Assembly (NCBI GenBank): GCA_037142195.1
Contig: JBAXBA010000002.1
Coordinates: forward strand, 1-64,000
Direction of reading: 5' to 3'
Source of the DNA: Pseudomonadota bacterium
Lineage (GTDB): Bacteria; Bdellovibrionota_B; Oligoflexia; Oligoflexales; CAIMVM01
DNA: 64,000 bases
Shown: piece by piece, positions 19,856-38,888 of the stretch
How the letters are laid out: the number at the start of each line of letters is the position of its first letter
Numbering within the stretch: position 1 is the stretch's first letter
Notes under the pieces: generated by a model
The model's input: only the letters and a program-made list of their open reading frames with translations
Databases searched by the model: none
Told to the model about the DNA's origin: nothing
Position numbers and translations under genes: made by a program

Positions 19856-20234
19856 ATATAAACCTCTACTTTAGATTATAGGGCAAATAATAAACTTTGG
19901 GTTTACTATTTTGCAAGATCATAAATGAGAACCTCTAATTCTTGGTTGATTATCAGGCAAGTACATGAATTTACTTAGTTTTTTATAGGCCCTGCTTTGA
20001 AGACAATCAGTTGGGTAAAGCATGAGTAGAATCCTTATGGACTACCAAGATTTAAAAAGTCCCGACCTTTTTGGAGTACGGTGTAAAATAGGCGTATTGG
20101 GTTTTAAATCCCGTTAAATAAAAAGCTATTTGCGCTATATAGCGGTTCAAACCTATCGAAATCGCCACATGAAACTTATACAAACCTTTGTATGTGCTTT
20201 TTGTACATTTCCCACTTCTTCGATGCTAGGGACA

Positions 20235-20413
20235 ATGCTTCAGAGCCAATAAATACATCACACCAGAATCTATGTAGTCCGGCCATGCGGCGCCACTGAA
20301 ACGAAAGTTGTTCAACTAGGCGAGAGAACTCGAAAATTAGGTTCGTCTCCGGCTTATGCATTCTTGTGCAATTAGCCTTGCCTTGTGCATTCTTGTGCAA
20401 TTAGCCTTGCCTT
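20235..20413 (+). repeat. copy of 33318-33480 (upstream region of the second Schlafen gene) including the 29-bp tandem
   Basis: cttcagagccaa.aaatacatcacaccagaatcta...cgccactgaaa...ttcgtctccggctt; CTT(A/G)TGCATTCTTGTGCAATTAGCCTTGC x2. Confidence 0.85.
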
Positions 20414-21145
20414 ACAGTCGCGCGTATCATGCAAGAACAAGCAGATGTTATAATAATCGCCGACTGCTGATTTAAACCTGATGCCGTCCGTATTTTCAGG
20501 TGCATTTTTCCTAAGCCAATGGGCCAGTATTTGGCTTGGTGCCGGATACTTAATATCAACCCATGTACCTGCCATGCTGGACATAGGCACGAGGTTAGCT
20601 ATGTTGGGGATTGCTGAGGAAAGACTTATCAAAACCGTATCTATATCAATAAGATTGAGAGCATCTGTTGTTGCGGCTTTTATTTCATAAGTGACTGCGG
20701 TTGACTTTGCCATACCCTCATCGCCGTATTCTTTGCGAACTCCATTTAAATCCTCGCATATATAAAGAGCAGATTTCTTGCGTCCCATATTGCCAAATTC
20801 TTTTACGGCCGTGGACGATGTTTGCGCTCCCCCAATATTGTAGCGACCACCATCACTTAAGGAGCCAGCCGTATCGAGAACATCGATAAGTCTACCAACC
20901 CTACGATAATACGTTTGACGGAAATATTGTTTAATCCAGTCGCTTTCAAAAGTCAGAGGTTCAAGAAGTTTAAAGAGATAGTTACTCTGCGACTGATTAA
21001 GTTTTGCTTCAGACTTCGTTACTTTTTCGACTCTTGTGAGTAGGATTCTGAAATATCGATAGTCCTTAAAAATATGATCACCACTGATTCCAGCGACGAT
21101 CAGGTCTTTCCCCGATATAAAAGCTTTTACAAGTTTACGAATCAT
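20372..21145 (-). CDS. RES-domain NAD+ phosphorylase-type toxin with N-terminal extension
   Basis: YRR, GGRYN, ALYIC..E, SQ.LA, DGIRFKSA, NICLF; downstream of a DUF2384-like gene. Confidence 0.8.
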   Translation of the reverse strand: MIRKLVKAFISGKDLIVAGISGDHIFKDYRYFRILLTRVEKVTKSEAKLNQSQSNYLFKLLEPLTFESDWIKQYFRQTYYRRVGRLIDVLDTAGSLSDGGRYNIGGAQTSSTAVKEFGNMGRKKSALYICEDLNGVRKEYGDEGMAKSTAVTYEIKAATTDALNLIDIDTVLISLSSAIPNIANLVPMSSMAGTWVDIKYPAPSQILAHWLRKNAPENTDGIRFKSAVGDYYNICLFLHDTRDCKARLIAQECTRQG

Positions 21146-21157
21146 AGCTCCTTATTT

Positions 21158-21556
21158 TTAAGCTGTCATTTCTTGTAGTTTAGCAATGACGCTTTCCGCT
21201 TCACCTGCCAATGCCTTCTCAAAAGGGGAGCGGCCAAAAAAGAGATGATTAGGAGACATGACCCAAAGAATGGTTTTCTCTTTGTCACCATCATGCAATT
21301 GAAATGCAAGGTCACTTATCATGACGAGACTAATGAGTCGTTCGCGAACCTTTTTGTCTATGATTGCTGATGGCTGATAAAGTTTAGGGCGCGAAATTTC
21401 AAGTGTCTCTGCAAGTTCTGTTAAAGGAAGACTTGTTAGTTCTGCTATCCGCTTAAACATATCTGTATTGATTTTGGTGAACGCAGAGTTTGTAGCAAAC
21501 CATTTGAGATGGTCGCTGACTTGTCCCGTATGTTCGATATAACTGGCATTTCTCAT
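21158..21556 (-). CDS. Xre/MbcA/ParS (DUF2384-like) antitoxin
   Basis: HTH (LTELAETLEISR) plus WVMSPNHLFFGRSP...GEAESV C-terminal toxin-binding pattern. Confidence 0.82.
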   Translation of the reverse strand: MRNASYIEHTGQVSDHLKWFATNSAFTKINTDMFKRIAELTSLPLTELAETLEISRPKLYQPSAIIDKKVRERLISLVMISDLAFQLHDGDKEKTILWVMSPNHLFFGRSPFEKALAGEAESVIAKLQEMTA

Positions 21557-21780
21557 GTGAACCTCTCAAAGGCAAAATCACCCTCTTATCCCACTATACT
21601 CTAAGATCGGAATAATTCTCAATAACTTAAGTAAATCTAGTTAGTTGACACTATAAGTACATATTTTTACAGAAATAAAACATTTTGTGACATCAAGGAA
21701 TTAATGACCTTTTTTGGGATCGCGCCTCAAAACCTGTTAGTTCCACTTAGACTATGCCTTAGGGCAAAACCCCTTTTTAC

Positions 21781-21942
21781 ACCCATGATTTTTGAGAACT
21801 ATAAAACCTTCCTTTTTGTATCCCAGAATCTATCTCTTCAAAAATAGGTAAAATATTTGGAATGCCATAGCATTAGTAGCAATCTCGTGAGAATCCACGT
21901 CCCAAAGATTTGATGATTTTTGAAGTCATGGGAGATCCCATC
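21781..21942 (+). repeat. degenerate repeat R copy 3
   Basis: acccatgatttttgaga...ttttgtatcccagaa...ggtaaaatattt...ctcgtgagaatc.acgtcccaaagatttgatgattttt. Confidence 0.85.
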
Positions 21943-21973
21943 TTTACTCATTCACCAGCACTCGATCAAATGC

Positions 21974-22963
21974 TCAAGGTAAGGAGAGCCCATTAATCTT
22001 AAATTCAAGAGTTTTGATTTGGCTCAGGAGATCGGAGAAATCAGGAATTTCGCCATAGATCATGACTTGCATTTCTCTGTAGTCTCTTTCTAGCGAAGAA
22101 CGTATGTGTTCAGGGGGCAAGAGCCGCATAGTTCCAGGTTTGGCGAGATCATATCGGGCCCAGCCGCGAGGATAAAATCGCTCTTTGGACGCGACAACAG
22201 ATGCAAGTAAACTGAGATCGCTAAAAGCTGCCTCCTTTACGGGGGATTGGGCTAAACGCGCAAGATCATAGTAATGGCGCGAATAGCGATCCGGTTGAGT
22301 GTTTCCCTCTGGACGAAAGGCTTCATGGTGAAGAATAGTTGCCTTTTCCCAGAAAGTTCGTTCGGCCTTTATGCACTGCACATGGCATGTCTTCCTGTTG
22401 AATACATTCGGGAATTCCTCAGCACAGTAAGGTGTAATTTCATATTTTTCATTTGGTGTCCATATCGCCAATGGTCCGATTTCTAATCGTATCTCAGGCC
22501 TGATGTAAGTCTCAGCGAAAGAAGCTGGGTATTTCACAGAAATGACATTTGGGTCTTTTGGGTCAAGTTCAACCTTGACAACCGGCGCAAGGAGCTGAAT
22601 ACATAACGGTAGTAGCTGGTCCCGAATATAATCCTGTGCTGCTACTTGTAACTGTTTGTTGAATTGATCCTGTTTTGTTCTTGATCTCTTTGCCTCAGGG
22701 TCTTCGTTGGTTATTTCCTTCCAATCGAGGATGAGGTCTATATCTTCAGAGAAACGCTCGATAAGTCCAAACACTTTGGAAAGTGAAGTGCCGCCCTTGA
22801 ACAAGATTTTTCGTGCGAGGCTAGGATCGTCAAAGAGTTTCGCAATTGACCAGCACACCCAGAAGTCTTTTTCAGCGATGGCATTCGATAGGCCACGTCG
22901 GGTGGCGGTTTCACGAAAAAGTTCAGCACGATCTTTAGCTGGTAATGTCGCTATTTTATCCAT
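21974..22963 (-). CDS. AbiEii nucleotidyltransferase toxin
   Basis: EKDFWVCW, FKGGTSLSK...RFSEDIDL, ERTFWEK, SRHYYD; ATG at 22963 overlaps the upstream TGA. Confidence 0.92.
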   Translation of the reverse strand: MDKIATLPAKDRAELFRETATRRGLSNAIAEKDFWVCWSIAKLFDDPSLARKILFKGGTSLSKVFGLIERFSEDIDLILDWKEITNEDPEAKRSRTKQDQFNKQLQVAAQDYIRDQLLPLCIQLLAPVVKVELDPKDPNVISVKYPASFAETYIRPEIRLEIGPLAIWTPNEKYEITPYCAEEFPNVFNRKTCHVQCIKAERTFWEKATILHHEAFRPEGNTQPDRYSRHYYDLARLAQSPVKEAAFSDLSLLASVVASKERFYPRGWARYDLAKPGTMRLLPPEHIRSSLERDYREMQVMIYGEIPDFSDLLSQIKTLEFKINGLSLP

Positions 22964-23574
22964 CAATCTCCCCCCTGGCATATCTTGACTATAGCCGCAT
23001 GAATCCATCCAGTTGTGATTTTGGTGTCAATTAAAACTTTTCTAGACAGGCGAGGATCAAGCCAGTTTCGTATGGTCTCGATGGTATTAGCGTTAATTCT
23101 ATCAGAGCCAAGGGATTTTAGACCCTGAACTATGATCGAACTTTCTCTGTGGGCGAAGCCTGTTTCTTTTAAGGTCGTATGCTTGAAAACGATACTATTT
23201 TTTCCAATCTTAAACACGCGGTTTGGTCCGTCGGAAACATAGACAACCTGTCCTGGAACTTGGTCAGTAAGTCTCATAAGACTCAGTGCCGACGGGCCAT
23301 TGATTTGAATGCGCCATCCAAACTTTCGGGCAATAGCATTGGCTACTGCATCGAGATCGGGACTTAGCGGTTGTTTCAGTAATTCGCTGTATTGTGGCAA
23401 ATCGTAAATGCCACGGACAACACGCCTAATGGTTCCATTTTCGGCCAGGCGATGTAGGGCGCTATCCACGCTAGATCGGATTCCGAGGTGGCCAAAGTCC
23501 TTGCTGGAGAACGCCCAAGCAAAACCTTGGGCTGATATTGACCTAACTATTCGTTTTTCTAAAGAAATATTCAT
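22963..23574 (-). CDS. DUF6088 AbiEi-type antitoxin
   Basis: VDSALHRLAENGTIRRVVRGIYD.P, LTDQVP, YVSDGP; likely start ATG 23574 (MNISLEK). Confidence 0.88.
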   Translation of the reverse strand: MNISLEKRIVRSISAQGFAWAFSSKDFGHLGIRSSVDSALHRLAENGTIRRVVRGIYDLPQYSELLKQPLSPDLDAVANAIARKFGWRIQINGPSALSLMRLTDQVPGQVVYVSDGPNRVFKIGKNSIVFKHTTLKETGFAHRESSIIVQGLKSLGSDRINANTIETIRNWLDPRLSRKVLIDTKITTGWIHAAIVKICQGGD

Positions 23575-23591
23575 ATGTATACCACCATATC

Positions 23592-23623
23592 TTGCAAGAA
23601 ATATTATAACATTTTTCTTGCAA
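23592..23623. promoter_or_regulatory. 10-bp inverted repeat, operator candidate for the DUF6088 operon
   Basis: TTGCAAGAAA-N12-TTTCTTGCAA; decayed copies at about 5683-5713 and about 14824. Confidence 0.6.
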
Positions 23624-23704
23624 CAATACAGCAAAATTGGCTCCCTTGGAGAATGCCCAAAGGAAAGACATTTGGGCGAAGACCTAAACAATCACAAAAC
23701 GCAT

Positions 23705-24578: not shown

Positions 24579-26567
24579 CTAACTTATTTCGTTAATTCTA
24601 GGTATCACTGTCTTCACAGCTGCTCCGGCTTGCAGAAGCAATCTAAGAAGCTGCGCATGCGCTATGGGTTTTGGTATGAAACTATCAGCTCCAGACTCAA
24701 TTGCAAACTTGTTATCGGCAGCAACGATGCGGTTTGAATGGATACAAATAAGTGCCTTGGAGCCACGGCGCCTCAACTCGGCAACGAGTTCAAAGCCATT
24801 CAAAGACATTTTGCCCATGTCAACATCAGTGACTATGAAGTCATAGTCATGGTTTGTGATAGCTTGTAAAGCTTCAATCGAACCATCGGCCTGAGTCAAT
24901 TCTAACGCCTTACTTAGTTCCGGCGTTCTCATCATATGTGATGCAAGCGCACTTCGGTAGATGGGCTCATCGTCTACAATCAATACCCGCAAAGGACGAC
25001 CGATGGATGAATGCGCGAGCAAGACATCTTCTTCCAATGATAATTCACCCTTATCGATACTTGTTGAGGCTTGAATTTTTTCCGTAAGCAGTGTCAACTG
25101 CTTTGCTATGTCAGAACTGTGCTGCGGCAAACTTGCCGTGGTGGCATTGAGTTGGTTGGCAGTAGGCAACGTAAAGAAAAACTCAACCTTGCCCTCAGGG
25201 TGTTCTGACGTCTTACTCGATTCGCACCAAATCTTGCCACCGTGAGCATTTACTACCTTTTGTGCAATGGCCAGTCCAAGGCCTGTGCCGCCCTTTTTGC
25301 CGCTAGTAAAAAAAGTATCAAAAAGCTTAGCTAGATTTTCTTCTAGAATCACAGAGCCTTCATTACCAATACAAAAAGTAATCATTCCTTTTGATTCCAA
25401 AGTCTTAAACCACATCGATCCTTTGTACCTCATCTCCTGGAAAGCATTGTCCACGATGTTAGAGAACACGCGGCTGATTTTTTGGACATGAACGTATGCC
25501 AAGTGAGTGTGTTCAAAGTCGTAAGAGAATGAAATTTTAGCGTCAGGATAAATTCGAACAACGTCCCCAAGAGTCGATTCAATTATAGATTCAGGGCTTA
25601 CTGCCTCTTGTATCAACTTAACCGAGGATGACCCAATCTCCATTACGTCAGCAAGCATACCATCAACACCAATCATAGCACTGTCAATCTGGGGAACGAC
25701 GCGAGACATCACCTTTTTCACACTTTCAGGATCTTTGGCATTGCCAAGCATCGCAAGACCGATACGCAACATGGTTAAAGGCTTGCGGACGTCGTGGGCT
25801 AACATTTGGGTGGTGCGGGCAATTGCCTCATCAGTGCGTGCTTGAAATTTAACTTCGGCCTTTTCAGCTTCGCTTAGGCGAATAGCAATTGCAAGCTCAC
25901 CGATTTCGCGAGCAAGTCTTCGAATGACTGTAACCAGGCGCATTTCTTCTGACGAGCTCGGATTCTTAGGGCTCTGTGCCGTCTTGACAGTCTCGTGATT
26001 TCTTACAGGATCGCTAAGGATCTGATCAGCGAGAGCTTCAATAGCAGAGATAGCTCGATCCAGGTTCGAAAACTCATTTTTCATCGTGTGTCGTACTGAA
26101 ATCAGTATCAAGGAACAAAGTACTAGCAAGCTAAGGCTAATCAAGCCAATAACGTGAATAGTTGGTTCCACCCAAGCAGATCTATCCACAAAAAGATGGA
26201 TAACACCCCAGCTAGTTCCCATCTCATCAAGAACCGCTACGGTCTCATGGGGGCCTTCGGTGGCACCAATATTGCAAATTTCGACGCCTTGCTGATTATT
26301 GACCTTAACCCCAGTAAATAAACCAGTTTCCAGCGCCATACGCATTGTGTTTTTAATTGGCAAGCTATCGGATGATATTAAATGACTGACGATATTATTT
26401 GGAAGTGATGCCCGCCAGGTGACAATTTGGCGAGACTGAAACGACTGAACTGTGACCCCGATACTGAAACCAGCAATAATAATTACTAATATAGACCCTA
26501 GTAATGCTTTAGGAGCGATGGCTCGCATTAATTTTGAATAAATGCTACTTAAGGAGTGAGAGCTCAT
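24579..26567 (-). CDS. membrane-bound hybrid sensor histidine kinase/response regulator
   Basis: Two TM segments around a periplasmic region, H-box LAHDVRKPL, N-box NIVDNA, GGTGLGL, C-terminal receiver (IVDDE, VTDVDM, FIPKP). Confidence 0.93.
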   Translation of the reverse strand: MSSHSLSSIYSKLMRAIAPKALLGSILVIIIAGFSIGVTVQSFQSRQIVTWRASLPNNIVSHLISSDSLPIKNTMRMALETGLFTGVKVNNQQGVEICNIGATEGPHETVAVLDEMGTSWGVIHLFVDRSAWVEPTIHVIGLISLSLLVLCSLILISVRHTMKNEFSNLDRAISAIEALADQILSDPVRNHETVKTAQSPKNPSSSEEMRLVTVIRRLAREIGELAIAIRLSEAEKAEVKFQARTDEAIARTTQMLAHDVRKPLTMLRIGLAMLGNAKDPESVKKVMSRVVPQIDSAMIGVDGMLADVMEIGSSSVKLIQEAVSPESIIESTLGDVVRIYPDAKISFSYDFEHTHLAYVHVQKISRVFSNIVDNAFQEMRYKGSMWFKTLESKGMITFCIGNEGSVILEENLAKLFDTFFTSGKKGGTGLGLAIAQKVVNAHGGKIWCESSKTSEHPEGKVEFFFTLPTANQLNATTASLPQHSSDIAKQLTLLTEKIQASTSIDKGELSLEEDVLLAHSSIGRPLRVLIVDDEPIYRSALASHMMRTPELSKALELTQADGSIEALQAITNHDYDFIVTDVDMGKMSLNGFELVAELRRRGSKALICIHSNRIVAADNKFAIESGADSFIPKPIAHAQLLRLLLQAGAAVKTVIPRINEIS

Positions 26568-27772
26568 AGTATACCTCTACGCCTTACCAATGCTGGAAAC
26601 AATACGAACATCTGCAAGACTCCTGCTGTTATAAAAAGTAAAGGAAGTGCGTTTAAAGAATAAGCGCCAATAACTACAAATGGAGATAAAGCCATTGCAA
26701 TCCCTGATGCTACGCTGGTCATGGACACTGCCCTAACCTGTTCGCCTAGTGATGCTGCCTTTAGAATGAGGTCATCTCTTCGACTAAGAACACCTAGCTC
26801 CATGCCTATTCGCGCCAAAAGTATCATTAAAATTATGGTGACAATTTGATCCGAATCCCCAATCAGATAAAGTAGAAATCCGTTTGGAATCAAGAAAAAA
26901 GATGCAACAGCCCGAATAGATTTGATACCCCAAATATTCCTATATGCGAGGTTGGCTAAAAATATAGAGGTAGCCTCGATCGCCCAAAACGCCCCCCGGA
27001 AGGAATCTGGCAGCACAGTAAGCGGGACAAAAAAGGAGTTGGAAGATGCAATCAGGGGGATAATAGCCACACATGCATATGACAATACGACGAATAATAG
27101 ATAGATCAGCATACTCGAGTCCGTGAATAGGCCAAATTTTTCTGCCGATTTGGAGCCGCCATCGCTCTTCGTCGCCTGGCTTCCCCAATCGCCATTCTTA
27201 AAGAATTTGGTCTGCGGCAGCAAAATTGCGGCGACCAAATAGGTTGCTAAATCAAAGCAAAGCACGCCTTGCCATCCACCGAAGTGCTCAATGATTGGCC
27301 ATGATAGACCTGCAAGCAAAAAAGATATTGCCGCAATAGTACCGCGTAGTGCCTGCGACGATTTGAATTTATGCTCATCACTTTCAACTCGCCGAAAAAT
27401 GACGGTGATAACATTGTTCAACACTACTGAAGGTATCGCTGAGGCAACTATCACAGCAACCGACAAGCCAGGTTGCTTGAACCATAGGGCTAAACCTAAC
27501 AAGACATTGCAAAGTACGCCGATAATTTGCGACCCCAATACAGAAGTCCGACCTCCTAAATGGAGCGACAAACCAGATCCAGCCAGGACCAAGGCAGACA
27601 CACAAAGAGTTTTTAAACTTAATGCGATTGCCACCGCCTCAAGTCCGCCGCCTATGACCCCAACTGTTTTGAATCCTACAAAGGATGTTAAATTGGTGCC
27701 AAAATTAGTCAATCCGAGAAGTAAAAGCATAGCCAAACGCTCATTATTTTTCACTTTATCATCCGCGTTCAT
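26564..27772 (-). CDS. MFS-type transporter (probable exporter)
   Basis: 402 aa with about 12 hydrophobic segments and a central hydrophilic loop; coupled to both neighbours. Confidence 0.75.
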   Translation of the reverse strand: MNADDKVKNNERLAMLLLLGLTNFGTNLTSFVGFKTVGVIGGGLEAVAIALSLKTLCVSALVLAGSGLSLHLGGRTSVLGSQIIGVLCNVLLGLALWFKQPGLSVAVIVASAIPSVVLNNVITVIFRRVESDEHKFKSSQALRGTIAAISFLLAGLSWPIIEHFGGWQGVLCFDLATYLVAAILLPQTKFFKNGDWGSQATKSDGGSKSAEKFGLFTDSSMLIYLLFVVLSYACVAIIPLIASSNSFFVPLTVLPDSFRGAFWAIEATSIFLANLAYRNIWGIKSIRAVASFFLIPNGFLLYLIGDSDQIVTIILMILLARIGMELGVLSRRDDLILKAASLGEQVRAVSMTSVASGIAMALSPFVVIGAYSLNALPLLFITAGVLQMFVLFPALVRRRGIL

Positions 27773-29003
27773 ATACTAGGAAGTGCCTTCCGACTTCTTT
27801 TGCTACCAACTCAATCCTTTTCAGATTATGGGATTTCAATAGATCATCGTATTCGCTAAGTGTTCTCTCTTTGCCACCAGCTTGAAGTAACATATTGAAA
27901 TCGTAACCTGCGTTCTTTATACGATCATCTTCTAAGGGGCGTTCTAAGACAATGATCTTTCCTCCTGGCTCAAGGTAAGCCAGAGCATTGCGAAGAATAG
28001 AATCGCAGGTTAAATCGTCCCAATCGTGCAAGATCCAGCCTAGGATAAGACAGTCAAAGGCTTCCAGTTGTGTTGAAGTTGAAGCTTTCTCGTGTTGAAC
28101 TGTAAAATCCTGATAGAAACGCCGAATGTTCAAGTCATCCGCTCCACATACTGTAGTGCGAAGCTTTTGCAAAGAGAATTGGGTGGAGGGGTGATCCATT
28201 ACCGTGAAGTCCGCTGGTCTCAAAAAAATTGACTTGCATGCCAACATCACTTGGCCTATGCCACCACCAACATCGAGAAATTTTGTCGATCCTGTTTTTT
28301 CCAAATAATCCGCTAGCTCTAGGTTACTTTGCCAATTAGAGAATGCAAACGTCAAGGCATGAAGGGCCATCAGATCATCCGGTTTGTCGTAGTGATCAAA
28401 AAGTCGAGTTGAAGAAAGTTCAAAGGCAACATCAGCGACACTTCCACCACGCTCTAAACCGAGTAAAATACAGTCATTAGTCATTGCTCTGCGAACTACA
28501 TGTCTGTAGAAAGTAAGCGTCATCAAATTTGAAGCCTCATAAAATAGATTTGGCTCGTTCTTATAAAGTAGACTTAGGGATCCTGCAAAAGAGATTATCT
28601 GATCGACATAGGATATGATCGCCCCCAGTGAGCTCTCACTTTCAATCTCAGATTTTAGCCATTGTATAAGTTCCGTTTGAGCATAAGTTTCGCGACGATG
28701 TTCAGTCATCTTAAAAGCTATTCCAGTTGAAGTTTTTTCGAGCATGCACATGCCTGATTCAACAAGAGCATTTAGCATTCTCTGGCATGCCTCCAATTTC
28801 CATCCGAAATGGGCGGCTAGATCTGATGCAAAAAAACGAGCCTGCACATAATCTCCCGCTGTTGCGGCCTTTAAGTACTTTTCAATTCGAGGTTTTGCAA
28901 AGTCTTCAATTCTAATAAGAACAAATATCCGCAAGTCATCGCGATCAAGTTTTTTACTCCATTTCTGGTAAGTCTCCAGAATAGGCTTATCTATTATTTG
29001 CAA
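27759..29003 (-). CDS. SAM-dependent O-methyltransferase (Methyltransf_2 type) with N-terminal wHTH/dimerisation region
   Basis: FLDVGGGIG, WILHDWDD, LEPGGKIIVLE, GGKERTLSEY. Confidence 0.9.
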   Translation of the reverse strand: MQIIDKPILETYQKWSKKLDRDDLRIFVLIRIEDFAKPRIEKYLKAATAGDYVQARFFASDLAAHFGWKLEACQRMLNALVESGMCMLEKTSTGIAFKMTEHRRETYAQTELIQWLKSEIESESSLGAIISYVDQIISFAGSLSLLYKNEPNLFYEASNLMTLTFYRHVVRRAMTNDCILLGLERGGSVADVAFELSSTRLFDHYDKPDDLMALHALTFAFSNWQSNLELADYLEKTGSTKFLDVGGGIGQVMLACKSIFLRPADFTVMDHPSTQFSLQKLRTTVCGADDLNIRRFYQDFTVQHEKASTSTQLEAFDCLILGWILHDWDDLTCDSILRNALAYLEPGGKIIVLERPLEDDRIKNAGYDFNMLLQAGGKERTLSEYDDLLKSHNLKRIELVAKEVGRHFLVYERG

Positions 29004-30526
29004 GCATCACCTCGAGAAATTTTTTCAAGATAAGAAAATGAATTGGGACTAATGAGCACCCCGGAGAGACTATTTGGAATTTGAATACAGCTCTTTACGA
29101 AATTTACATGCCCTACATGATACATCGGTATCATGATAGATTCCTCGAAAATATCCCGGTCAAGTTCGCGATAGATCTCAAAGCGATCACTTAGATTAGG
29201 CAGTCCCATAGCGCGATGCAATAAATCAACATATAGAGGCTTAGTGTAAAAAAAGAATAGATTACCATCGCCTGGCAAAAATCTTCTAAAAACGGCGCCA
29301 GCATCCCTAGATGGAAATAGAAAAAGTTCAATGTATGCAGCAGTTTTTGGGTGACCTTCTCTAGGACTCATCTCTGCATAGCTCTTCTCATATTGAAAAT
29401 TTGCCTGAAGCCCCACACTTGCCATGGCCTTTGTAATACGCTCTTGATCACATGTGGATGCACGTCCTATGTGTTCGTAAATGGTTACAATTGAGTCTGC
29501 CGCCGACAACTTGGGAAAACTAAGAGCCTTTTGTGTAGACGATATATTAGGTTTTTTGTTAAGGCTTCCACCTATACCGGGTGGGATAAAGCCAATTGCA
29601 GATGTGGTCCCTGGGGAGCACTGTTCGATCTTTTGTATGTCGCTAATTTGGCGGTGAAGCTCCTGCCTTCTATTTTTGTCTTTAAATGCTGCAAATTTTG
29701 GGTTGACCACAAGAGTTTGGGTAACAGACGCAGAGTGAAAGTGCTTATTATAGGCTGCAGAGTGAATTTTAGCTCCCGTGGAGGATAGATACATAGCCGC
29801 GACATCGACCGTGCCTGCGTCTAATGTTTGGGCAATATTTTTTTCATCGTAATAGCGAAAAGTAATTTTATCATGTTTCGCTTCTTTGGGGGTTCTCTTC
29901 ATGAATTCGTTGGGCACGACTGTAGCCTCATTGGCTAATTTGGAGTCGACCCGGTAGGGACCACTTCCAATAGTTGATCCATTTGAAGCAATTTTGAATA
30001 CAGAAACGTTCAGAGATGCTATTCGATACAAAAAACTACTTGGATCAAACTTTAATTGAAAAATCACCGAAGTTCGGTCCGTAGACTCCCTGATTCCCAC
30101 AGCATTTGAATTGCCCTCAATACACCCAGCCAAATCATCTAGAAGGTCACGAATGCGACTTTCCTTCGAGCACAGAATCTGAAATGAACGAACGATGTCT
30201 GCAGTGGTAACATTACTGCCATCAGAAAATTTATGCTTAGGGCGAATGACAACGCTCAATTCCTTATGTGATCGATCGAATGTCCATGATTCAGCTAATT
30301 CAGGGGCAATCGCACCATCCTCATTCAACTTAAAAAGTCCTTCATAGATGAGTGACAAAATAAAACGTTCCTGAGCGATAGCAACTTTTTGCGGCTCAGT
30401 ATTTAGGATAGGATTTGGTATGGCAACAAGCAAATTGTCTTGACCTTGTTTTTTAGCCAACGCAGCGCTGGAAATAAAATAGAATACCCAAATCACGAAC
30501 AATTTTTTTCGGCTAAACATCCTCAT
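28994..30526 (-). CDS. family-5 (OppA/DppA-like) solute-binding protein with no cognate ABC permease/ATPase
   Basis: Signal peptide, IYEGLFKL...IAPELAESW, KFSDGSNVTTADIVRSF, GSGPYRV. Confidence 0.88.
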   Translation of the reverse strand: MRMFSRKKLFVIWVFYFISSAALAKKQGQDNLLVAIPNPILNTEPQKVAIAQERFILSLIYEGLFKLNEDGAIAPELAESWTFDRSHKELSVVIRPKHKFSDGSNVTTADIVRSFQILCSKESRIRDLLDDLAGCIEGNSNAVGIRESTDRTSVIFQLKFDPSSFLYRIASLNVSVFKIASNGSTIGSGPYRVDSKLANEATVVPNEFMKRTPKEAKHDKITFRYYDEKNIAQTLDAGTVDVAAMYLSSTGAKIHSAAYNKHFHSASVTQTLVVNPKFAAFKDKNRRQELHRQISDIQKIEQCSPGTTSAIGFIPPGIGGSLNKKPNISSTQKALSFPKLSAADSIVTIYEHIGRASTCDQERITKAMASVGLQANFQYEKSYAEMSPREGHPKTAAYIELFLFPSRDAGAVFRRFLPGDGNLFFFYTKPLYVDLLHRAMGLPNLSDRFEIYRELDRDIFEESIMIPMYHVGHVNFVKSCIQIPNSLSGVLISPNSFSYLEKISRGDACK

Positions 30527-31815
30527 GCCAATGCACCCTCGACTGTTTTAGTCTCGTCTTCATCAAGTTGTTCGCGTAGTTCAGGGTTTTCTATTATCAT
30601 AAGTGCAATTTCCCTCTCCTTGGATATCTGTTTTGACTCACCATATAGCCTAGTCAGCTCGATAAGTGGACTTAAAGCTAAATTGTCAGCTTTTGCAGAT
30701 GCTAGAAATGACCGTTCAGCAGCGCCCAGGTCTCCTAAGTTTTTTTCACATTGCCCCTGTAGATGTAAGTTCATGGCCGTGGCAGGAGGACCTAATGATG
30801 CTGCTTGTTTAAAATGAACGAGTGCTTTTTCGTGATTTTTTATTTTGCAAAAATGCAAACCTAATTCGCTATGGGACGTTGAGTCATAGGGATCCAAATG
30901 AGACATTTGTGAAAAGGCTGCGACCGCTTGATCTGTATCATTACGTGAGAGGTAGAGCTTAGCAAATGATTGCCACAAAGTGGCTTGTAACTCATCTCGA
31001 AGTGTGGACCAAGGTTTATTCTCAGTGTTGATCATTTGAGAGGCTTGTAGAGCACGATCCATTAACTTTAGGACTGAGTCGTACGACAATCCTGGTGTCA
31101 TGGCAAGACCCCTTAAAGCTGTCGACCACTTGAGGGCTTGCCCCCAATCTTTTGGCGAAAATTTGAGCCAACTGTCGAGATTGGAAAGAATCGCAGCTGC
31201 GTGTTTACGAGCGTGAATCTGGCCGCGTTCGAATCGGGATGACACGACTACAATGCGTGCTATAAGCGAAATATGTTCGAGCAGTAAGGCATTATCAACG
31301 GTGGAAGCCATCTCGGCAAGATTTTCAAGTTTGCTAAACGAAGCTGAAATGCCAAGATCTAAATCTAGTATTTGGAAAAGAAGTGCTCGTTGGCTTTCGT
31401 ATTTGAAGAATATAGTTGAACTTGCATCTGTGGACTTAAAAGCTCGAATTTCTTCTATAAGTCCATATCGAGCAAGCACAGCCATCAAAGGAATTAGAAC
31501 GGAATCTACGTGATAAGAGTCACAAGGTAAATGTGCTACAGATGATGCAGCATCCGCCAGTCGCTTTCGAAATGACTTTAGTTCGGTGGCAGCTTCCGCA
31601 TTTTCTAATCGATCTATTTCGTGAAAAAATTCCGGGTTTGGAATTCTTTGGGGAAATGAAATGTCTTTTGCGCGCCCAGCAAGTAATCCCTCGATTCCAT
31701 TTACGTGAGACCAAAACCAGGCAAAGAACTCGGAATTCCGAGTGGAATAGGAGCTCGAATATCCGCAATATCCAGGCGTAATATTTGAAAAATTCGCATT
31801 TATTAAAGGCAACAA
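30523..31815 (-). CDS. tetratricopeptide-repeat protein with uncharacterised N-terminal half
   Basis: C-terminal TPR-like repeats (AVAAFSQMSHLDPYDSTSHSELGLHF, ALVHFKQAASLGP); TTG start after GGAGAG; ATGA overlap with the SBP gene. Confidence 0.78.
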   Translation of the reverse strand: MLPLINANFSNITPGYCGYSSSYSTRNSEFFAWFWSHVNGIEGLLAGRAKDISFPQRIPNPEFFHEIDRLENAEAATELKSFRKRLADAASSVAHLPCDSYHVDSVLIPLMAVLARYGLIEEIRAFKSTDASSTIFFKYESQRALLFQILDLDLGISASFSKLENLAEMASTVDNALLLEHISLIARIVVVSSRFERGQIHARKHAAAILSNLDSWLKFSPKDWGQALKWSTALRGLAMTPGLSYDSVLKLMDRALQASQMINTENKPWSTLRDELQATLWQSFAKLYLSRNDTDQAVAAFSQMSHLDPYDSTSHSELGLHFCKIKNHEKALVHFKQAASLGPPATAMNLHLQGQCEKNLGDLGAAERSFLASAKADNLALSPLIELTRLYGESKQISKEREIALMIIENPELREQLDEDETKTVEGALA

Positions 31816-31864
31816 ATACTCTCCATTTAGTCTTCAGTCTATGAGAGGAATTTTGGGTTCAGGA

Positions 31865-31884
31865 AGGGGGACTGTAGTCCCCCT
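31865..31884 (-). terminator. GC-rich hairpin between the small ORF and the TPR gene (attenuator or stability hairpin)
   Basis: AGGGGGAC-TACA-GTCCCCCT on the minus strand; no long U-tract, so read-through is plausible. Confidence 0.55.
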
Positions 31885-31918
31885 CTTGGCTATTGCCATG
31901 CTCCTACCGGTATTACTT

Positions 31919-31969
31919 TTAAGTACCTGCGTAGTTTGCGCCGGCAGCTTTCCGTTTAGACTTAAACAT
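31919..31969 (-). CDS. candidate 16-aa peptide MFKSKRKAAGANYAGT (not in the ORF track)
   Basis: SD AAGGAG (31982-31977) 7 nt before ATG 31969; ends TAA AAG TAA. In-frame upstream ATGs at 31975 and 32017 lack a well-spaced SD. Confidence 0.55.
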   Translation of the reverse strand: MFKSKRKAAGANYAGT

Positions 31970-32107
31970 TATCATTCTCCTTTCTGTTTTCCCATTGTTT
32001 GACTTGAGGTCTTTCATGCACTGAGCTGGTGTTTCGCTGGCCCATAAATTGAGGCCTTTGAAAGCTGAGTACTTTGAAAAACCGCAAAAACTCACAACGA
32101 TCCAAAG

Positions 32108-32122
32108 GCAATCTCCGTGCCA
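32108..32122 (-). promoter_or_regulatory. sigma-54 (-24/-12) promoter
   Basis: TGGCACG-GAGA-TTGC on the minus strand, matching the consensus TGGCACG-N4-TTGC and pointing into the peptide/TPR operon. Confidence 0.72.
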
Positions 32123-32229
32123 CTAGTTTTTTCACTGGCAACCCCTCGAAACCACGTCCAAACCTAGTATAGCGGGTGCTCCAAAACTCTAAATTCGTCC
32201 CGGCCGTGGTACAAAATCTTTTCATTTGC

Positions 32230-32472
32230 CTAGAATATGGGCAAAAGTGGTAAATAAATGGACCCACAGGGATAAGCGAGGCCATCAAAGACTAGGCGAT
32301 CCGATATGTCTTTCGGAGAATCCTCAAGCAAGGCCTTTAAAACTCCAAACACGGCGTAATCTTTCCATACTATTTCACTGGAAATCCCCAGCGCATCTGC
32401 AGTATTCAAAGTGGCATCATGGATTTTTTCATCTAAAAAGAGTGAGCCAAAGTTGGACATTAGGGACTCCAT
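32230..32472 (-). pseudogene. truncated AbiEii toxin
   Basis: TADALGISSEIVWKDYAV...RLVF then diverges (DGLAY) where KGGTSL is expected. Confidence 0.75.
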
Positions 32473-32487
32473 CCGGAAGATATTTGG

Positions 32488-33150
32488 TCAATTCAAATGA
32501 AAAACAAATTCCAGATTCCTAATGGCTTTCCGCCCCTTCTGACCACCAAGACGTGTACATATATCGCGCAAGCAACTTCGACTTATGAAGTTGATTTTAA
32601 GGAAGCGCTTAAAGCCAAGAGCTACCTCAGCACTCGATTCATTGCCTATTTTGTCAAGAGAGACGAGTGCTAGATATGACTTGAGCTCGCTATCGCTTAA
32701 ATCCTGGTACTTCTCCATTGGCACCGTAACAACCTTCAAGGCTTTCGAATTTCCAGGAAAACGCACGGGAGCTATAAATGATTTCTGTACTGGAACTTGG
32801 GTGGTTAAAGCCATCTCATAGAAAAGCGTTGCTCCCACGGGTATCAATCGGTTGATTCGAATACGCTCATTCCCAAACGATGCTTGATCACGGGCCCGCT
32901 TCTCCAAAAGAAGCTTTTGCAAAACCGCCTCATCCGAAGCACGACTTGGGCCTACCAACGTCTCCTTAGGAAGGTAATACATTCCCCTGGAGTAGCGCTT
33001 GATCTTCGACTGAGCCTCCAAGCGGGAAAGTGCCCGCTGCACTGTGCCTGCTGAAAAGCGAGGAATCGCCACATCCCTCCAGCTGAAAACTGACCCTGAT
33101 TTAAATTCTCTTATTTTATTGAGGACTTGACGAGAACACAAACCGCGCAT
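32488..33150 (-). CDS. DUF6088-like AbiEi antitoxin
   Basis: TVQRALSRLEAQSKIKRYSRGMYYLPK, LTTQVP. Confidence 0.8.
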   Translation of the reverse strand: MRGLCSRQVLNKIREFKSGSVFSWRDVAIPRFSAGTVQRALSRLEAQSKIKRYSRGMYYLPKETLVGPSRASDEAVLQKLLLEKRARDQASFGNERIRINRLIPVGATLFYEMALTTQVPVQKSFIAPVRFPGNSKALKVVTVPMEKYQDLSDSELKSYLALVSLDKIGNESSAEVALGFKRFLKINFISRSCLRDICTRLGGQKGRKAIRNLEFVFHLN

Positions 33151-33437
33151 GTTAAATTCCCCTATACTCTTATATATCCGAATAGTTACTATCGGTTTTG
33201 TCTAAAAATAATTTAATTAGATTCAGTCAAAAAGTGAGATAATATATTATTTTTATTGATTTATTAGTCTCGTTCAAAAGAGAGAACGTTGTTCCAGATA
33301 ACTGGTTAATTATTTAGGGGCAATACTTCAGAGCCAACAAATACATCACACCAGAATCTAAGCAGTCCGGCTATGGGGCGCCACTGAAAGAAAGTTTTTC
33401 AACTAAGCGCGAACTCGAAAATGAGCTTCGTCTCCGG

Positions 33438-33506
33438 CTTGTGCATTCTTGTGCAATTGGCCTTGCCTTGTGCATTCTTGTGCATTATGATCTCCCTTGT
33501 GCAATT
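33438..33506. repeat. 29-bp period tandem (about 2.4 units) upstream of the second Schlafen gene
   Basis: CTTGTGCATTCTTGTGCAATTGGCCTTGC / CTTGTGCATTCTTGTGCATTATGATCTCC / CTTGTGCAATT. Confidence 0.85.
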
Positions 33507-33551
33507 AGCAGTGACGAATTTCTAGAAGGGCATACTGGAAAGGAATCTTCG

Positions 33552-34901
33552 ATGTTTGGAAAAGAGATGCTTGGAAAAGAGATGCTTGACCGAGAGTCAA
33601 AAACACTGGAGTACAAGCGGGAATTACCCTCGAATCTGGCGGGCATAATTAAGACATGCGTCGCATTTTCTAATACTGCCGGCGGCCGCATTGTTCTAGG
33701 GGTTGAAGATGAAAACCGGAGTGTGATTGGCCTGACCGATAGGGAGATGGAAAAGGCGCTCGAGATCTTAGCTTCAGCTATTTACGAGGCAGTAACGCCA
33801 GCTGTTGTAGCCGAGGTGTTTAACCTGACCATTGATGAAAAGCATCTGATCATTGTTGACGTCGCTCGGGGCAGCAGTCCTCCTTATTTTGTCAAACGGC
33901 TTGGATCGACGAAAGGTGTTTTTGTTCGAGTAGGACCAACAACTCGACCCGCCTCACTGGAACACATTCACGAGTTAATGAGTTTTCGAAGTCGATACTC
34001 TTTTGATGAGGAATCCCTCCAGGGCTCAATGGATGAAATTGATGCAGGACTCATAGAGCAGGCATATGGCCGTTCTCCAAGTCGTGAGCTCTTGATGTCG
34101 GAAAAGGTGTTGTTAAAATCCGTTCAGAATCAGCCCGCCTTGTCGCTGGCAGCCATGGTCGCTTTCGGAAAACGACCTGACAGACAAATCCCGGAAGCGG
34201 CGGTTATCTGCACGCGATTTCAAGGAACATCGGGACGAGACATTATCGAGTCCAGCGAGATCCACGGGCCAATCTCCGATTTGACATCGCGTGTACTCGA
34301 TTTTCTTCAGCGGCATTTGGAAAGAAACTTTAAATTGCGCGGCGCAAAGCTCAGCGGAATGGAATTGATACCTTTAGCCGCTTTACGCGAGGCGGTTGTC
34401 AACGCATTGATTCATCGAAAATACAATGTTCCCTCTCCTGTTAAGGTGGCAGTCTTTGACAATCGTGTAGAGATTTTTAGCCCGGGAGGACTTCCAGGCC
34501 TGATCACGTTAAAGCAGCTGGGTGACGGGAGCAGCCATTTGCGCAACCCTCTTCTTGCAAAGTTCGCAAGACGCCTCAGGATCATGGAAAAACTTGGCTC
34601 CGGAGTTCGCGTGATGCTTGAAGAGTGTCAAAAACGGGGCATCGTGCCGCCCGAGTTTTTTGAAGATGGCGATTACGTAAAAGTTGTGTTCGGCACCGAG
34701 CGGAGTCAGCAAAACGCCCATGAGCTATCAAGCGTTATCGCGGACTTGTTCCTAAGGCAGCAAATAGTTCGAGTGAGCGAAATCTCAAAATGTGTAAAGG
34801 TATCTCGAAATACAATTACCAATGCTCTAAATCGGTTGCTCGAGGAGGGCAAGATATCAAGGCATGGCAAAGGCGCGGGCACCTACTACACGCGAACGTG
34901 A
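33552..34901 (+). CDS. Schlafen/AlbA_2 - HATPase/RecG C-terminal - wHTH protein (intact)
   Basis: ESKTLEYKR, AFSNTAGGRIVLGVED, ALREAVVNALIHRKY, MEKLGSG, C-terminal wHTH. Start is 33552, 33567 or 33582 (15-bp tandem). Confidence 0.88.
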   Translation: MFGKEMLGKEMLDRESKTLEYKRELPSNLAGIIKTCVAFSNTAGGRIVLGVEDENRSVIGLTDREMEKALEILASAIYEAVTPAVVAEVFNLTIDEKHLIIVDVARGSSPPYFVKRLGSTKGVFVRVGPTTRPASLEHIHELMSFRSRYSFDEESLQGSMDEIDAGLIEQAYGRSPSRELLMSEKVLLKSVQNQPALSLAAMVAFGKRPDRQIPEAAVICTRFQGTSGRDIIESSEIHGPISDLTSRVLDFLQRHLERNFKLRGAKLSGMELIPLAALREAVVNALIHRKYNVPSPVKVAVFDNRVEIFSPGGLPGLITLKQLGDGSSHLRNPLLAKFARRLRIMEKLGSGVRVMLEECQKRGIVPPEFFEDGDYVKVVFGTERSQQNAHELSSVIADLFLRQQIVRVSEISKCVKVSRNTITNALNRLLEEGKISRHGKGAGTYYTRT

Positions 34902-35064
34902 CGGTAATGGTGCCAGCTGCCAAAAAAATCTCGCCTTGCAATCGCGTATATCATGGGCGAACAAGTAATCTTTAGCGACTTCTGAAACGACATGACGTTT
35001 CCGGCTGCTTTTAGAAAGTGGGGAAATGGCGACACGCCTAAAGGGATTATTAAGATAATATGAG

Positions 35065-35502
35065 GTGAAAAATATGATACGAAGTGAAACAGAATATCAA
35101 AAAGCTATTGGGCGAGTTAAGAATGAAAAAGAACTCATTGAAAAAGCCAAAAAAAATCTAAAAAACAAAGGGTTAAAATCAAAAGAAATAGAGAGAGCTT
35201 TAAACCCCTTGCTGTCTTTCACAGCGCAGTTAGAAGAAGAAATAGAAACCTACGAAAAAATTAAAAGAGGTGATTTCGAAACCATTGAAAACTTCGATGG
35301 ATTAGGTCGATCTTTGATTGCCTTACGTATAAACAAAAATATGTCCCAAAAAGATCTGGCGGATAAACTAAAAATTGCAGAGTCGCAGATTTCTCGTTAT
35401 GAAAAGAATGAGTACCGAGGCATTTCCATGGAACGAGTCAACGAAATATTAAACGCTCTTCATGCAAAAGCGGTTACAAAATTTGAAATTCTTGTGGCTT
35501 GA
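35065..35502 (+). CDS. XRE-family HTH protein, HigA-like orphan antitoxin/regulator
   Basis: MIRSETEYQKA N-terminus; LIALRINKNMSQKDLADKL...ISRYEKNEY. Confidence 0.8.
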   Translation: MKNMIRSETEYQKAIGRVKNEKELIEKAKKNLKNKGLKSKEIERALNPLLSFTAQLEEEIETYEKIKRGDFETIENFDGLGRSLIALRINKNMSQKDLADKLKIAESQISRYEKNEYRGISMERVNEILNALHAKAVTKFEILVA

Positions 35503-35702
35503 AATGGGGCGCGGGAATTCACCGGGACGCTTTAGATCAGAATATTTTTGTTGATTCCACTATTTATGTTCCTATAGCTGCCTGAAGATGTGCTGGTTGC
35601 GGCACTGCAGAAGCTGTGTATGCCACCAAGGTGATAGATACGCAAGTTTCCAAGTTCACTGGTTAGAGCCAGCCTTGCCTTTTTAAGTCCATTGGCACCT
35701 GT

Positions 35703-36080
35703 TCAAATCATTTGCTTGTCTTGTTTTGCTAACTTAGTTTCGATAGTGGAACTTAATATCCCGCTTGCAGATTGGTCTAAGGACTTTTCTGGGAAAGAGT
35801 CCAGGTCCTCTCCATCCATCGCTGGCATCATCAGAAATTCTGACTCGGTAAGCGCCGAGCCAATAATAAGTGTATCGAAGAACTCTCCGCCAAAAATCTC
35901 TTGGTTTTTGCTAACCATGTAGTGCATTCTCTGGGCTCGGGACATCCCCTGAAAGGAAGAGGATGTGACTATAAATTCGACGCCTGTCGGAAGCCTGTCT
36001 CTCAAGATACGGACTTGAGCATCGGAAAAGTCCTGAGAAAAACCCATTTTTATTCGTTCCAATAGTTTAATTCTATCCAT
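35703..36080 (-). CDS. HEPN partner: MNT-like/BolA-like small protein lacking the GS-x10-DxD motif
   Basis: VEFIVTSSSFQGMSRAQRM...ALTESEF; overlaps the HEPN 3' end; likely start ATG 36080. Confidence 0.6.
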   Translation of the reverse strand: MDRIKLLERIKMGFSQDFSDAQVRILRDRLPTGVEFIVTSSSFQGMSRAQRMHYMVSKNQEIFGGEFFDTLIIGSALTESEFLMMPAMDGEDLDSFPEKSLDQSASGILSSTIETKLAKQDKQMI

Positions 36081-36460
36081 TTCAACAACCATTCCGATGA
36101 GTTACAGTATTTGTCAGCTAATGCCCTATCGGCATCTCCATAATATCTATCCCTTGGGGCCCAAACATTAGCATCCCCAGCAATTTCTACCAGCAATTTA
36201 TAGGCCAAGACATCTTGAACAAAGAGGCTCTGAAGAAATCCGTTCCGCTTCTGAAGCAGATCCATAATTCTATGCCCCCAAAATTCGCTATCTTCGGCAT
36301 CTGGGAAGGTCTGAAATAAAAGAGATTTTAGTGCCAGTTCGATTGCAAAAAAAGCATTTTCTACCGAATTATTAAAATGCATGTTCTTATTGGAAAGAAT
36401 GGCTCCCGCCAACTTTTCTTTTGCATTTCTACTTAATTTCTCCCATTTTTTGACTTCCAC
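36050..36460 (-). CDS. HEPN domain protein
   Basis: AIELALKSLL, GHRIMDLL, RY motif and helical layout typical of HEPN. Confidence 0.78.
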   Translation of the reverse strand: MEVKKWEKLSRNAKEKLAGAILSNKNMHFNNSVENAFFAIELALKSLLFQTFPDAEDSEFWGHRIMDLLQKRNGFLQSLFVQDVLAYKLLVEIAGDANVWAPRDRYYGDADRALADKYCNSSEWLLKWIELNYWNE

Positions 36461-38681: not shown

Positions 38682-38888
38682 AATACCTCCACTTGAAAAT
38701 TACATGTATATTTCAGGCACTAGTTATTATATAGACAACCGGTTTCAAATACTAGACTTTTTCCACCATGTGCCCTTATTTTAAACAGTTGTGATTTCTG
38801 CAGCAACTTTTACTTTATGACCTTCGTAGGCTCTTGGTTTCTTTTCGTTTATGAAGCTGCCAAGTAATGAACTTAACGTTAGCTGAAC

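Follow-up and report, generated by a model that had tools for sequence, protein, structure and literature searches.

A conserved 16-codon peptide gene and its gene cluster point to a peptide-based make, export and sense system in Gram-negative bacteria

We analysed a window of 64,000 nucleotides (positions 1 to 64,000, forward strand, of contig JBAXBA010000002.1, GenBank assembly GCA_037142195.1) from a Pseudomonadota bacterium that GTDB places in the Oligoflexales. The minus strand of this window carries a cluster of five protein genes together with a small open reading frame (ORF) of 16 codons. The five genes encode a protein of the tetratricopeptide repeat (TPR) family, here called protein X, an orphan periplasmic binding protein, an O-methyltransferase, a presumed exporter and a hybrid histidine kinase. 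By its sequence conservation, the small ORF is a real peptide gene that is shared across phyla, and the cluster points to an undescribed peptide-based system of making, exporting and sensing. The best reading, to which we give slightly less than an even chance, is a horizontally spread module built around a translated gene for a peptide of 16-18 residues, which would form a make, export and sense circuit. No published description of such a cluster was found among the best matches of the literature searches.

A translated peptide gene conserved across phyla

In the window, an AGGAG Shine-Dalgarno (SD) site stands 7 nucleotides 5' of the second of two ATG codons, and the ORF read from this ATG has 16 codons. 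Genome and metagenome scans together with whole-genome searches yielded 19 distinct loci with X. The initial annotation had staked its idea of a peptide signal on a small ORF conserved near homologous clusters, and such an ORF was present in 16 of these loci (the window, L011, L048, L050, L052, L053, L056, L070, L074, L075, L015, L017, L054, L055, L058 and L067/L076). The loci come from at least two phyla, and their small ORFs have an amino-acid motif in common and differ by synonymous codon changes. The three loci without it (L010, L051 and L059) end at a contig edge where the ORF would be expected. The contig of L010 ends inside X, that of L059 at the end of X, and that of L051 about 700 bp after the binding-protein gene, short of the place that the small ORF takes in L052 and L070. 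Two degraded remnants of X (L068 and L069), beside which no convincing small ORF was found, were left out of the count, and records of the same locus were merged (L011 with L014; L010 with L013; L048 with L049; L057 and L066 with L070; L015 with L060 and L065; L017 with L064; L067 with L076).

The peptides are basic, have 16-18 residues and show no hydrophobic signal segment. Their motif consists, in the first half, of an aromatic residue, a basic residue, Ser/Thr, mostly Lys, any residue and mostly Lys, and in the second half of Ser/Thr/Asn, any residue, an invariant Gly, any residue, a small polar or acidic residue and Tyr (Phe once), with one to three variable residues as a tail. A purine-rich SD site precedes all 12 small ORFs inspected for it, and across 12 ORFs the conserved residues are written with different synonymous codons (GGC, GGT and GGA for Gly; CGT, CGA, CGC and AGA for Arg). 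When five loci of the second layout described below (type B) were compared, the conserved block of DNA comprised the SD site and the small ORF, and the flanks were divergent and carried insertions and deletions (indels). The conserved motif, the varied synonymous codons and the confinement of the conserved block to the SD site and the ORF together indicate selection on the translated product.

The small ORFs were collected by a six-frame pattern search and then by a profile built from 11 peptides, which gave 12 loci. Loci fetched after the profile had been built matched it independently, with E-values of 4.9e-11 for L067/L076, 3.3e-9 for L070, 2.9e-4 for L074 and 1.8e-3 for L075. With a profile from which the window peptide had been left out, the window ORF ranked first among 192,859 six-frame segments of its genome (E 0.0051; next segment 0.65). 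A chance ORF, the explanation tried here as an alternative, is ruled out by this genome-wide rank and by the independent profile matches in the later-fetched loci. An NCBIfam scan of five translated small-ORF stretches returned no family; no family model was found for the peptide or, with Pfam and NCBIfam, for X.

The small ORF stands before the X gene in the window, L011, L050 and L055, before the methyltransferase gene in L053, L056 and five type-B loci, and before the exporter gene in L074 and L075. In L048, L052 and L070 it follows the exporter or kinase gene and points towards the 3' end of an X operon that runs convergently, from which a terminator-like hairpin separates it. The small ORF thus tracks the cluster and not any single neighbour, suggesting that it is a component in its own right, and its varying position argues against a role as leader or attenuator.

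Partner proteins, related loci and genomic setting

Pfam matches X weakly to TPR_2 and related families (E 1.2e-6), only over residues ~279-370 in the C-terminal third; in residues 1-270 Pfam finds no helix-turn-helix (HTH) or other domain, and this N-terminal part has family-specific motifs only. The hydropathy scan found no transmembrane segment in X or in the methyltransferase, and X is predicted to be cytoplasmic. A word-based protein search with X gave only two relatives; a HMMER search with a four-row X profile gave 156 proteins at E-values up to 1e-30, of which the leading ones, proteins of ~400-475 residues, each match in a single stretch that covers nearly the whole profile. The X alignment holds 75 relatives and the window protein, and a 22-row subset of it was used for the metagenome scan. 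X proteins form a family of roughly 420 residues matched from end to end, with N-terminal motifs outside every Pfam model in addition to the TPR part. Names were found for two of ten clusters of relatives looked up ("tetratricopeptide (TPR) repeat protein" and "hypothetical protein"), and an atlas search with X returned generic TPR clusters only. In L015 (10583-10789), X ends after ~67 residues and is followed by unrelated genes.

The structural model of X is an all-alpha superhelix (predicted local distance difference test score, pLDDT, 80; predicted template-modelling score, pTM, 0.81), and Foldseek matched this model to generic TPR proteins only. A separate structural search ranked TPR proteins that bind peptides at the top, with LGN/Pins at Z 17.9 and RapI at Z 16.7 over 271 residues; designed TPR proteins scored ~15, followed by a phage Rap with peptide (13.9), pLS20 Rap (13.2), RapH (13.0) and NprR (12.3). 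Since helical repeats reach Z ~13-14 by chance in that search, the matches show a peptide-binding kind of fold and not kinship. The TPR protein of the initial annotation is in this sense upheld by model and structural matches as a probable cytoplasmic superhelix of the peptide-binding kind.

The binding protein belongs to family 5 (SBP_bac_5, E 1.2e-23), and its N-terminus is a hydrophobic, signal-like segment. Among solved structures, its nearest relatives are binders of peptides, murein tripeptide, nickel complexes or a peptide pheromone, six of its cysteines are invariant across nine orthologues, and no ABC permease or ATPase gene adjoins its gene. The kinase matches HATPase_c (4e-18), Response_reg (6.5e-17) and, weakly, HisKA, and its transmembrane segments 22-40 and 139-157 in the hydropathy scan flank a periplasmic loop of ~98 residues. 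In an alignment of eight orthologues from two phyla, nine of the 15 invariant columns fall within this loop; this concentration suggests a sensor part specific to the system. Binding protein and kinase occur together in nine loci (the window, L010, L011, L048, L052, L056, L070, L074 and L075), and on the short contigs of L051, L053 and L057 only the binding protein is in view. The pair proposed in the initial annotation thus stands as an orphan peptide-type binding protein that strictly co-occurs with a dedicated kinase.

The methyltransferase matches Methyltransf_2 with E 1.2e-18 and 67.7 bits, above the cut-off of 22.3. The solved structures nearest to it are those of hydroxyindole and plant phenol O-methyltransferases, which act on aromatic hydroxyls, so that the enzyme can be read as phenol-type, in line with the O-methyltransferase first annotated. 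The glycine-rich motif (D244, G246-G248, G250) for S-adenosylmethionine (SAM) and the residues H326-D327-W328 are invariant in four orthologues, and we take the His of the H-D-W motif to be the catalytic base. Together with the phenol-type relatives, these invariant motifs would make the Tyr hydroxyl the obvious target in the peptide. The methyltransferase is present in 15 loci, and L058 has two.

The exporter, a protein of 402 residues annotated at the outset as belonging to the major facilitator superfamily (MFS), holds this label by its fold and not by its sequence. The window protein has no Pfam match, and its profile gave no match in a PDB sequence search at E up to 1; homologues reach MFS_1 below or near the cut-off (L053 1.1e-8, L017 1e-4, L075 2.8e-4). 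Hydropathy shows about 10-12 hydrophobic segments. With a model made from seven orthologues (pLDDT 76, pTM 0.79), the top 50 Foldseek matches were all MFS transporters over the full length, with E-values down to 3.3e-8 and template-modelling (TM) scores of 0.6-0.75. The best of these matches (ferroportin, MdfA, SotB and VMAT) had TM scores of ~0.7, and the fold comes closest to DHA1 efflux pumps and vesicular amine transporters.

A search with the methyltransferase in 41 related genomes, including the window's own, gave matches in seven. In two of them (G001 and G040) the match extends over almost the full length and in G037 over the C-terminal 237 residues, and in these three the gene lies within a homologous cluster. 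In G037 (L011), all five genes recur with their order unchanged at 29-36% identity. Just upstream of X stands an ORF of 16 codons that has an SD site and is followed by a hairpin, and the product of this ORF has the motif of the window peptide. On the 4.9-kb contig of G040 (L010), X, binding protein, methyltransferase and kinase are found at 32-51% identity and the exporter as 45 residues. The synteny expected in the initial annotation is accordingly seen elsewhere, with protein identities of 30-50% across the related loci.

The loci fall into two layouts. Type A (the window, L010, L011, L048, L050, L051, L052, L053, L056, L059, L070, L074 and L075) combines X and the family-5 binding protein with the kinase, an exporter of the MFS-like or MatE kind and, usually, the methyltransferase, and often has the gene of a receiver-domain protein just before X. 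L051, L052, L059 and L070 have this gene directly upstream of X, and in L070 the two genes overlap by 4 bp. Type B (L015, L017, L054, L055, L058 and L076), from metagenome-assembled genomes (MAGs) of Gammaproteobacteria, consists of a LexA-like repressor, a 176-residue protein that matches no family, the small ORF, the methyltransferase, X and a Vut_1 membrane protein, to which some loci add an MFS-like or MatE gene. In L017 (7811-12408), for example, an HTH-S24 LexA-like repressor, the conserved 176-residue protein and Vut_1, of the vitamin-uptake type, take the place of binding protein and kinase. A receiver domain is absent from the clusters of L011 and of the type-B loci. The operon of the window is not the fully self-contained unit first proposed: no DNA-binding output is encoded in the window, and the receiver-domain protein that many relatives add was not found in this genome, where the L070 protein as a single query had no match.

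Two further arrangements were seen. In L074 (14324-16240) and L075 (2556-4398), a second, soluble histidine kinase of ~255-276 residues lies beside the receiver-domain protein, which hints at a multi-step phosphorelay. In L016 (7788-13306), from a Bdellovibrionaceae MAG, one row of genes encodes a kinase, a methyltransferase belonging to the same clade, an aromatic amino-acid hydroxylase of the biopterin type, a LysE exporter and a binding protein, in the absence of X and the small ORF; this locus has the look of an analogous circuit that would serve a small aromatic molecule.

The cluster is rare: X was found in 3 of 95 genomes of the window's order and 3 of 131 of its phylum, in 6 of 86 genomes of one gammaproteobacterial order and in at least 3 of 400 genomes sampled from that class, a floor set by the four candidates scored per genome. 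In the window, the neighbourhood of the cluster (18683-23691 and 32488-40582) is made up of accessory genes: toxin-antitoxin genes of the AbiE type (AbiEii with DUF6088, AbiEi-like, on both sides) and of the RES type (a RES-domain protein), a regulator of the Schlafen/AlbA_2 kind and three DUF4143/AAA_14 ATPases. A relative ~97% identical, from lake metagenomes, retains the entire stretch, in which only two indels occur, one of 3 nucleotides in frame in the methyltransferase gene and one of a single nucleotide in the spacer between hairpin and X; the metagenome data sets X2 and X3 are possibly one data set. In the sister species G001 of the same genus (L009, G001:C228, 259-1472), two small ORFs, one with a Fic/DOC domain and the one before it, read by eye, a putative ribbon-helix-helix antitoxin, replace window positions 30491-32287, that is, promoter, small ORF and X. 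In the same genome the exporter gene (window 26642-27755) is cleanly deleted with its last 25 codons left, the binding-protein gene reads in two frames, and the cluster is decaying. In L075 (8650-12444), an insertion of ~2.5 kb with an IS66-family transposase splits X. Read from these sequences, the module is accessory and mobile, maintained where present and lost as a unit.

On the minus strand of the window, five ORFs run from 31815 to 24579 (Table 1), each overlapping its neighbour (by 4, 10, 14 and 4 bp). ORF starts were set at the first start codon after a stop, and true starts may lie further downstream. The coordinates and overlaps of the five genes, the small ORF with its SD site and the hairpin agree with those first annotated. 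The NCBIfam scan of the five proteins gave zero matches above a curated cut-off. PADLOC left four of the five without a match and gave the methyltransferase one weak match (mad2, E 5.3e-4), with no defence family among the five. The 80 nucleotides after the small-ORF stop fold at -25.0 kcal/mol (RNAfold), and a hairpin or terminator follows the small ORF in eight further loci whose sequence was read at this place, including L011, L048, L050, L052, L053, L056 and L070.

Table 1 Features of the cluster in the window
Feature	Coordinates	Strand	Evidence
Sigma-54-like -24/-12 motif TGGCAC-N5-TTGC; possible promoter, doubtful part	32108..32122	-	Exact match
Small ORF, conserved peptide gene, 16 codons and stop	31919..31969	-	Shine-Dalgarno site; motif in relatives
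GC-rich hairpin 3' of the small ORF	31865..31884	-	8-bp stem, 4-nucleotide loop, no T-run (RNAfold)
Protein X, 430 residues, TPR-family	30523..31815	-	Weak TPR Pfam matches; all-helical model
Orphan periplasmic solute-binding protein of family 5 (peptide/nickel type), 510 residues	28994..30526	-	SBP_bac_5
SAM-dependent O-methyltransferase with long N-terminal extension, 414 residues	27759..29003	-	Methyltransf_2
MFS-fold membrane protein, presumed exporter, 402 residues	26564..27772	-	Fold model; hydropathy
Hybrid sensor histidine kinase, 662 residues	24579..26567	-	HATPase_c, Response_reg, weak HisKA; two transmembrane segments, C-terminal receiver

The consensus -24/-12 promoter proposed upstream of the small ORF is confirmed as a motif and is doubtful as a promoter. 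Its -24 GG and -12 GC elements have the right spacing and match exactly at 32122..32108, and rpoN is encoded in the host genome. With up to one mismatch allowed, the window has four matches where 3.09 are expected, and four are also reached in 31 of 100 shuffles, so that the motif alone is not above chance. It is also not conserved: upstream of the small ORF, L011 has a sigma-70-like site (TTGTTA-17-TATAAT) and no sigma-54 motif. No AAA+ enhancer-binding protein was found among the ten neighbour genes scanned. A second exact copy of TGGCAC-N5-TTGC, at 26261-26275 on the plus strand and inside the kinase gene, is probably due to chance.

A proposed circuit and its alternatives

The circuit that we propose is assembled from parts that are observed: the peptide gene, the co-occurrence of the genes across phyla, the folds and families of the encoded proteins and, by sequence, their place in the cell. 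The peptide, with its aromatic residue, basic Ser/Thr-Lys-rich stretch, invariant Gly, polar residue and Tyr/Phe near the C-terminus, would be made in the cytoplasm and held in the concave groove of the TPR superhelix of X. The phenol-type O-methyltransferase would modify it, most likely on the Tyr hydroxyl and possibly with trimming, and the MFS exporter (MFS or multidrug and toxic compound extrusion, MATE, in relatives) would pump it out. In the periplasm, the orphan family-5 binding protein would capture the peptide and relay its presence to the dedicated hybrid histidine kinase by way of the kinase's periplasmic loop, closing an autoinducer-like circuit. We infer all binding and chemical steps, the direction of transport and the target of the kinase. 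A bolder form of the proposal, which we think possible and on balance unlikely, is that the cluster represents the first family of ribosomally encoded peptide autoinducers native to Gram-negative bacteria, a cross-phylum cassette in which an unprocessed peptide passes by way of X, a Tyr O-methyltransferase and an efflux pump to binding protein and kinase, and in which X may double as a Rap-like modulator of a phosphorelay.

Several observations weigh against this circuit. X has no catalytic or DNA-binding domain that Pfam recognises, and the likeness of its model to Rap or LGN is within the chance reach of helical repeats. Binding protein and kinase are both absent from the examined stretch of the six type-B loci, suggesting that the sensing half is optional, and a Cupin_2 protein takes the place of the methyltransferase in L048, suggesting that methylation is not universal. 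No exporter gene was found in the examined stretch of L052, L055 and L058. MFS and MATE pumps usually carry molecules far smaller than a cationic peptide of 16 residues, and the exported species may be a fragment of the peptide or something else. Pfam finds no protease or RRE-like domain (RRE, recognition element of RiPPs, peptides that are made on the ribosome and modified after translation) in the five window proteins; X might serve as an RRE-like recognition element through a different fold. The window hairpin was not called by the terminator scan, and no T-run follows its stem. As for the peptide itself, the L050 copy has Phe instead of Tyr at the conserved C-proximal aromatic position. 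The L058 copy scores at noise level (E 0.34; unrelated segments 0.25-0.3) and was accepted on its position in the same gap, its stop codon and its SD site only.

The explanation that comes nearest to the proposed circuit, though we consider it unlikely, is a natural product cluster of the RiPP type, the product being an antibiotic, a metal binder or a cofactor-like compound. In such a cluster the small ORF would be the precursor gene, X and the methyltransferase would serve maturation, the exporter would give release or self-protection, and binding protein and kinase would act only in autoinduction, uptake sensing or control of immunity. The tiny precursor, the hairpin, the tailoring enzyme and the MFS or MATE exporter are all present, the core that stays constant where contigs allow is the small ORF with X, mostly with the methyltransferase, the sensing half is lacking in type B, and tailoring varies, with the cupin in L048 and the two methyltransferases in L058. 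However, neither Pfam nor NCBIfam finds a known maturase, an RRE/PqqD-like domain or a leader peptidase domain in the five window proteins, for a leader plus a core the peptide would be very short, it is conserved over nearly its whole length, and the strict pairing of binding protein and kinase together with the system-specific loop suggests that sensing is central in type A. A small aromatic molecule, made and sensed independently of the peptide, is rather improbable as the signal; the product of the small ORF would then be a regulatory micro-protein with a modulating effect on X, on the kinase or on the exporter. Small phenols are the normal substrates of this methyltransferase family, small molecules are suitable cargo for MFS and MATE pumps, and the gene row of L016 lacks X and the small ORF. 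Against this, neither the window cluster nor most relatives encode a scaffold-building enzyme, no pair is as constant as the small ORF and X, and the binding protein is of the peptide/nickel type.

The same parts could be arranged as an intracellular circuit of the RRNPP kind, like Rap-Phr, an idea to which we attach a low probability. X would be the receptor of a re-imported peptide and would act on the receiver of the hybrid kinase or of the protein encoded before X, and the binding protein would import the peptide through an Opp-type permease encoded elsewhere. The Rap proteins and NprR among the structural matches of X (Z 16.7-12.3), the receiver-domain gene directly upstream of X in four loci and the membership of the binding protein in the OppA/PrgZ family would fit. 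Yet X has neither an HTH nor any other effector domain, the scores of generic TPR proteins are as high as those of Rap, the 16-18-residue peptide has no secretion signal, unlike Phr-type propeptides, permease genes do not adjoin, and L011 and the type-B clusters lack a receiver domain. An excerpt of PMC10075063 describes such systems for Firmicutes and their mobile elements. It is very improbable, finally, that the small ORF is a leader peptide whose hairpin attenuates transcription or translation of the downstream operon. The order in the window and L011 (short ORF, hairpin, first gene) is the one expected of a leader, but in L048, L052 and L070 the ORF is the last on its strand, facing a convergent operon end with no gene after it, elsewhere the next gene is X, the methyltransferase or the exporter, and the amino-acid sequence, not structure alone, is conserved across phyla. 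These comparisons leave the make, export and sense circuit as the reading that we prefer.

Significance and comparison with known systems

If the proposed circuit is true, the picture of signalling in Proteobacteria changes. Gene-encoded peptide signals are textbook knowledge for Gram-positive bacteria. In an excerpt of PMC10075063, the signals of Proteobacteria are described as enzyme-made small molecules. The cluster offers a small, portable set of parts for a direct test of a gene-encoded peptide circuit in Gram-negative lineages, names two unannotated families, the peptide and X, and brings forward a possible new peptide tyrosine O-methyltransferase and a new pairing of a family-5 binding protein with a kinase. 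It also illustrates that a gene of 16 codons, normally missed by gene callers, can be the most informative gene of a locus.

Among the systems that resemble the cluster, those of the RRNPP group (Rap-Phr, NprR-NprX and PlcR-PapR, with Opp import) likewise place a TPR superhelix next to a tiny peptide gene and have an OppA-family protein and receivers nearby. They differ in that X has no HTH or known effector and showed no sequence similarity to them beyond TPR repeats, that the peptide has no export signal, that the hosts lie outside Firmicutes, and that methyltransferase, efflux pump and membrane kinase belong to the module. Family-5 binding proteins take up or recognise peptides such as microcin C. 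The clusters of microcin C and pantocin A share with ours a very short precursor gene followed by a hairpin, tailoring that includes a SAM-dependent enzyme and an MFS exporter. In contrast to these, no ThiF/E1-like or other known maturase was found with Pfam and NCBIfam, the constant partner is a TPR protein, and a dedicated kinase is present. The phc system of Ralstonia (PhcB/PhcS) also encodes a signal-making SAM-dependent methyltransferase together with the sensing kinase; its signal, however, is a fatty-acid methyl ester, and it has no peptide gene, TPR protein or binding protein.

With Agr and ComCDE the cluster has in common a ribosomally made short peptide, dedicated export and a membrane histidine kinase as sensor, all in one locus. 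The hosts of our cluster are Gram-negative, namely an Oligoflexales-like MAG and MAGs of Gammaproteobacteria, the peptide carries neither leader nor signal, and export would run through an MFS or MATE protein in place of an ABC/peptidase transporter or AgrB. Our cluster adds a periplasmic binding protein before the kinase, the TPR protein and the O-methyltransferase, and no sequence relationship to either system was seen. The sensing half resembles LuxP-LuxQ, TorT-TorS and CBP-ChiS, in which an orphan periplasmic binding protein also stands beside a (hybrid) kinase, with no ABC permease genes. CBP is itself a family-5 binding protein. Its action on ChiS, as described in part of PMC12704726, gives a working precedent for a kinase governed by a binding protein. 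The pair described here, known from its genes, differs from these three in its short loop of ~98 residues with motifs of its own and in its presumed ligand, which would be a self-made peptide instead of autoinducer-2 (AI-2), trimethylamine N-oxide (TMAO) or a chitin oligosaccharide.

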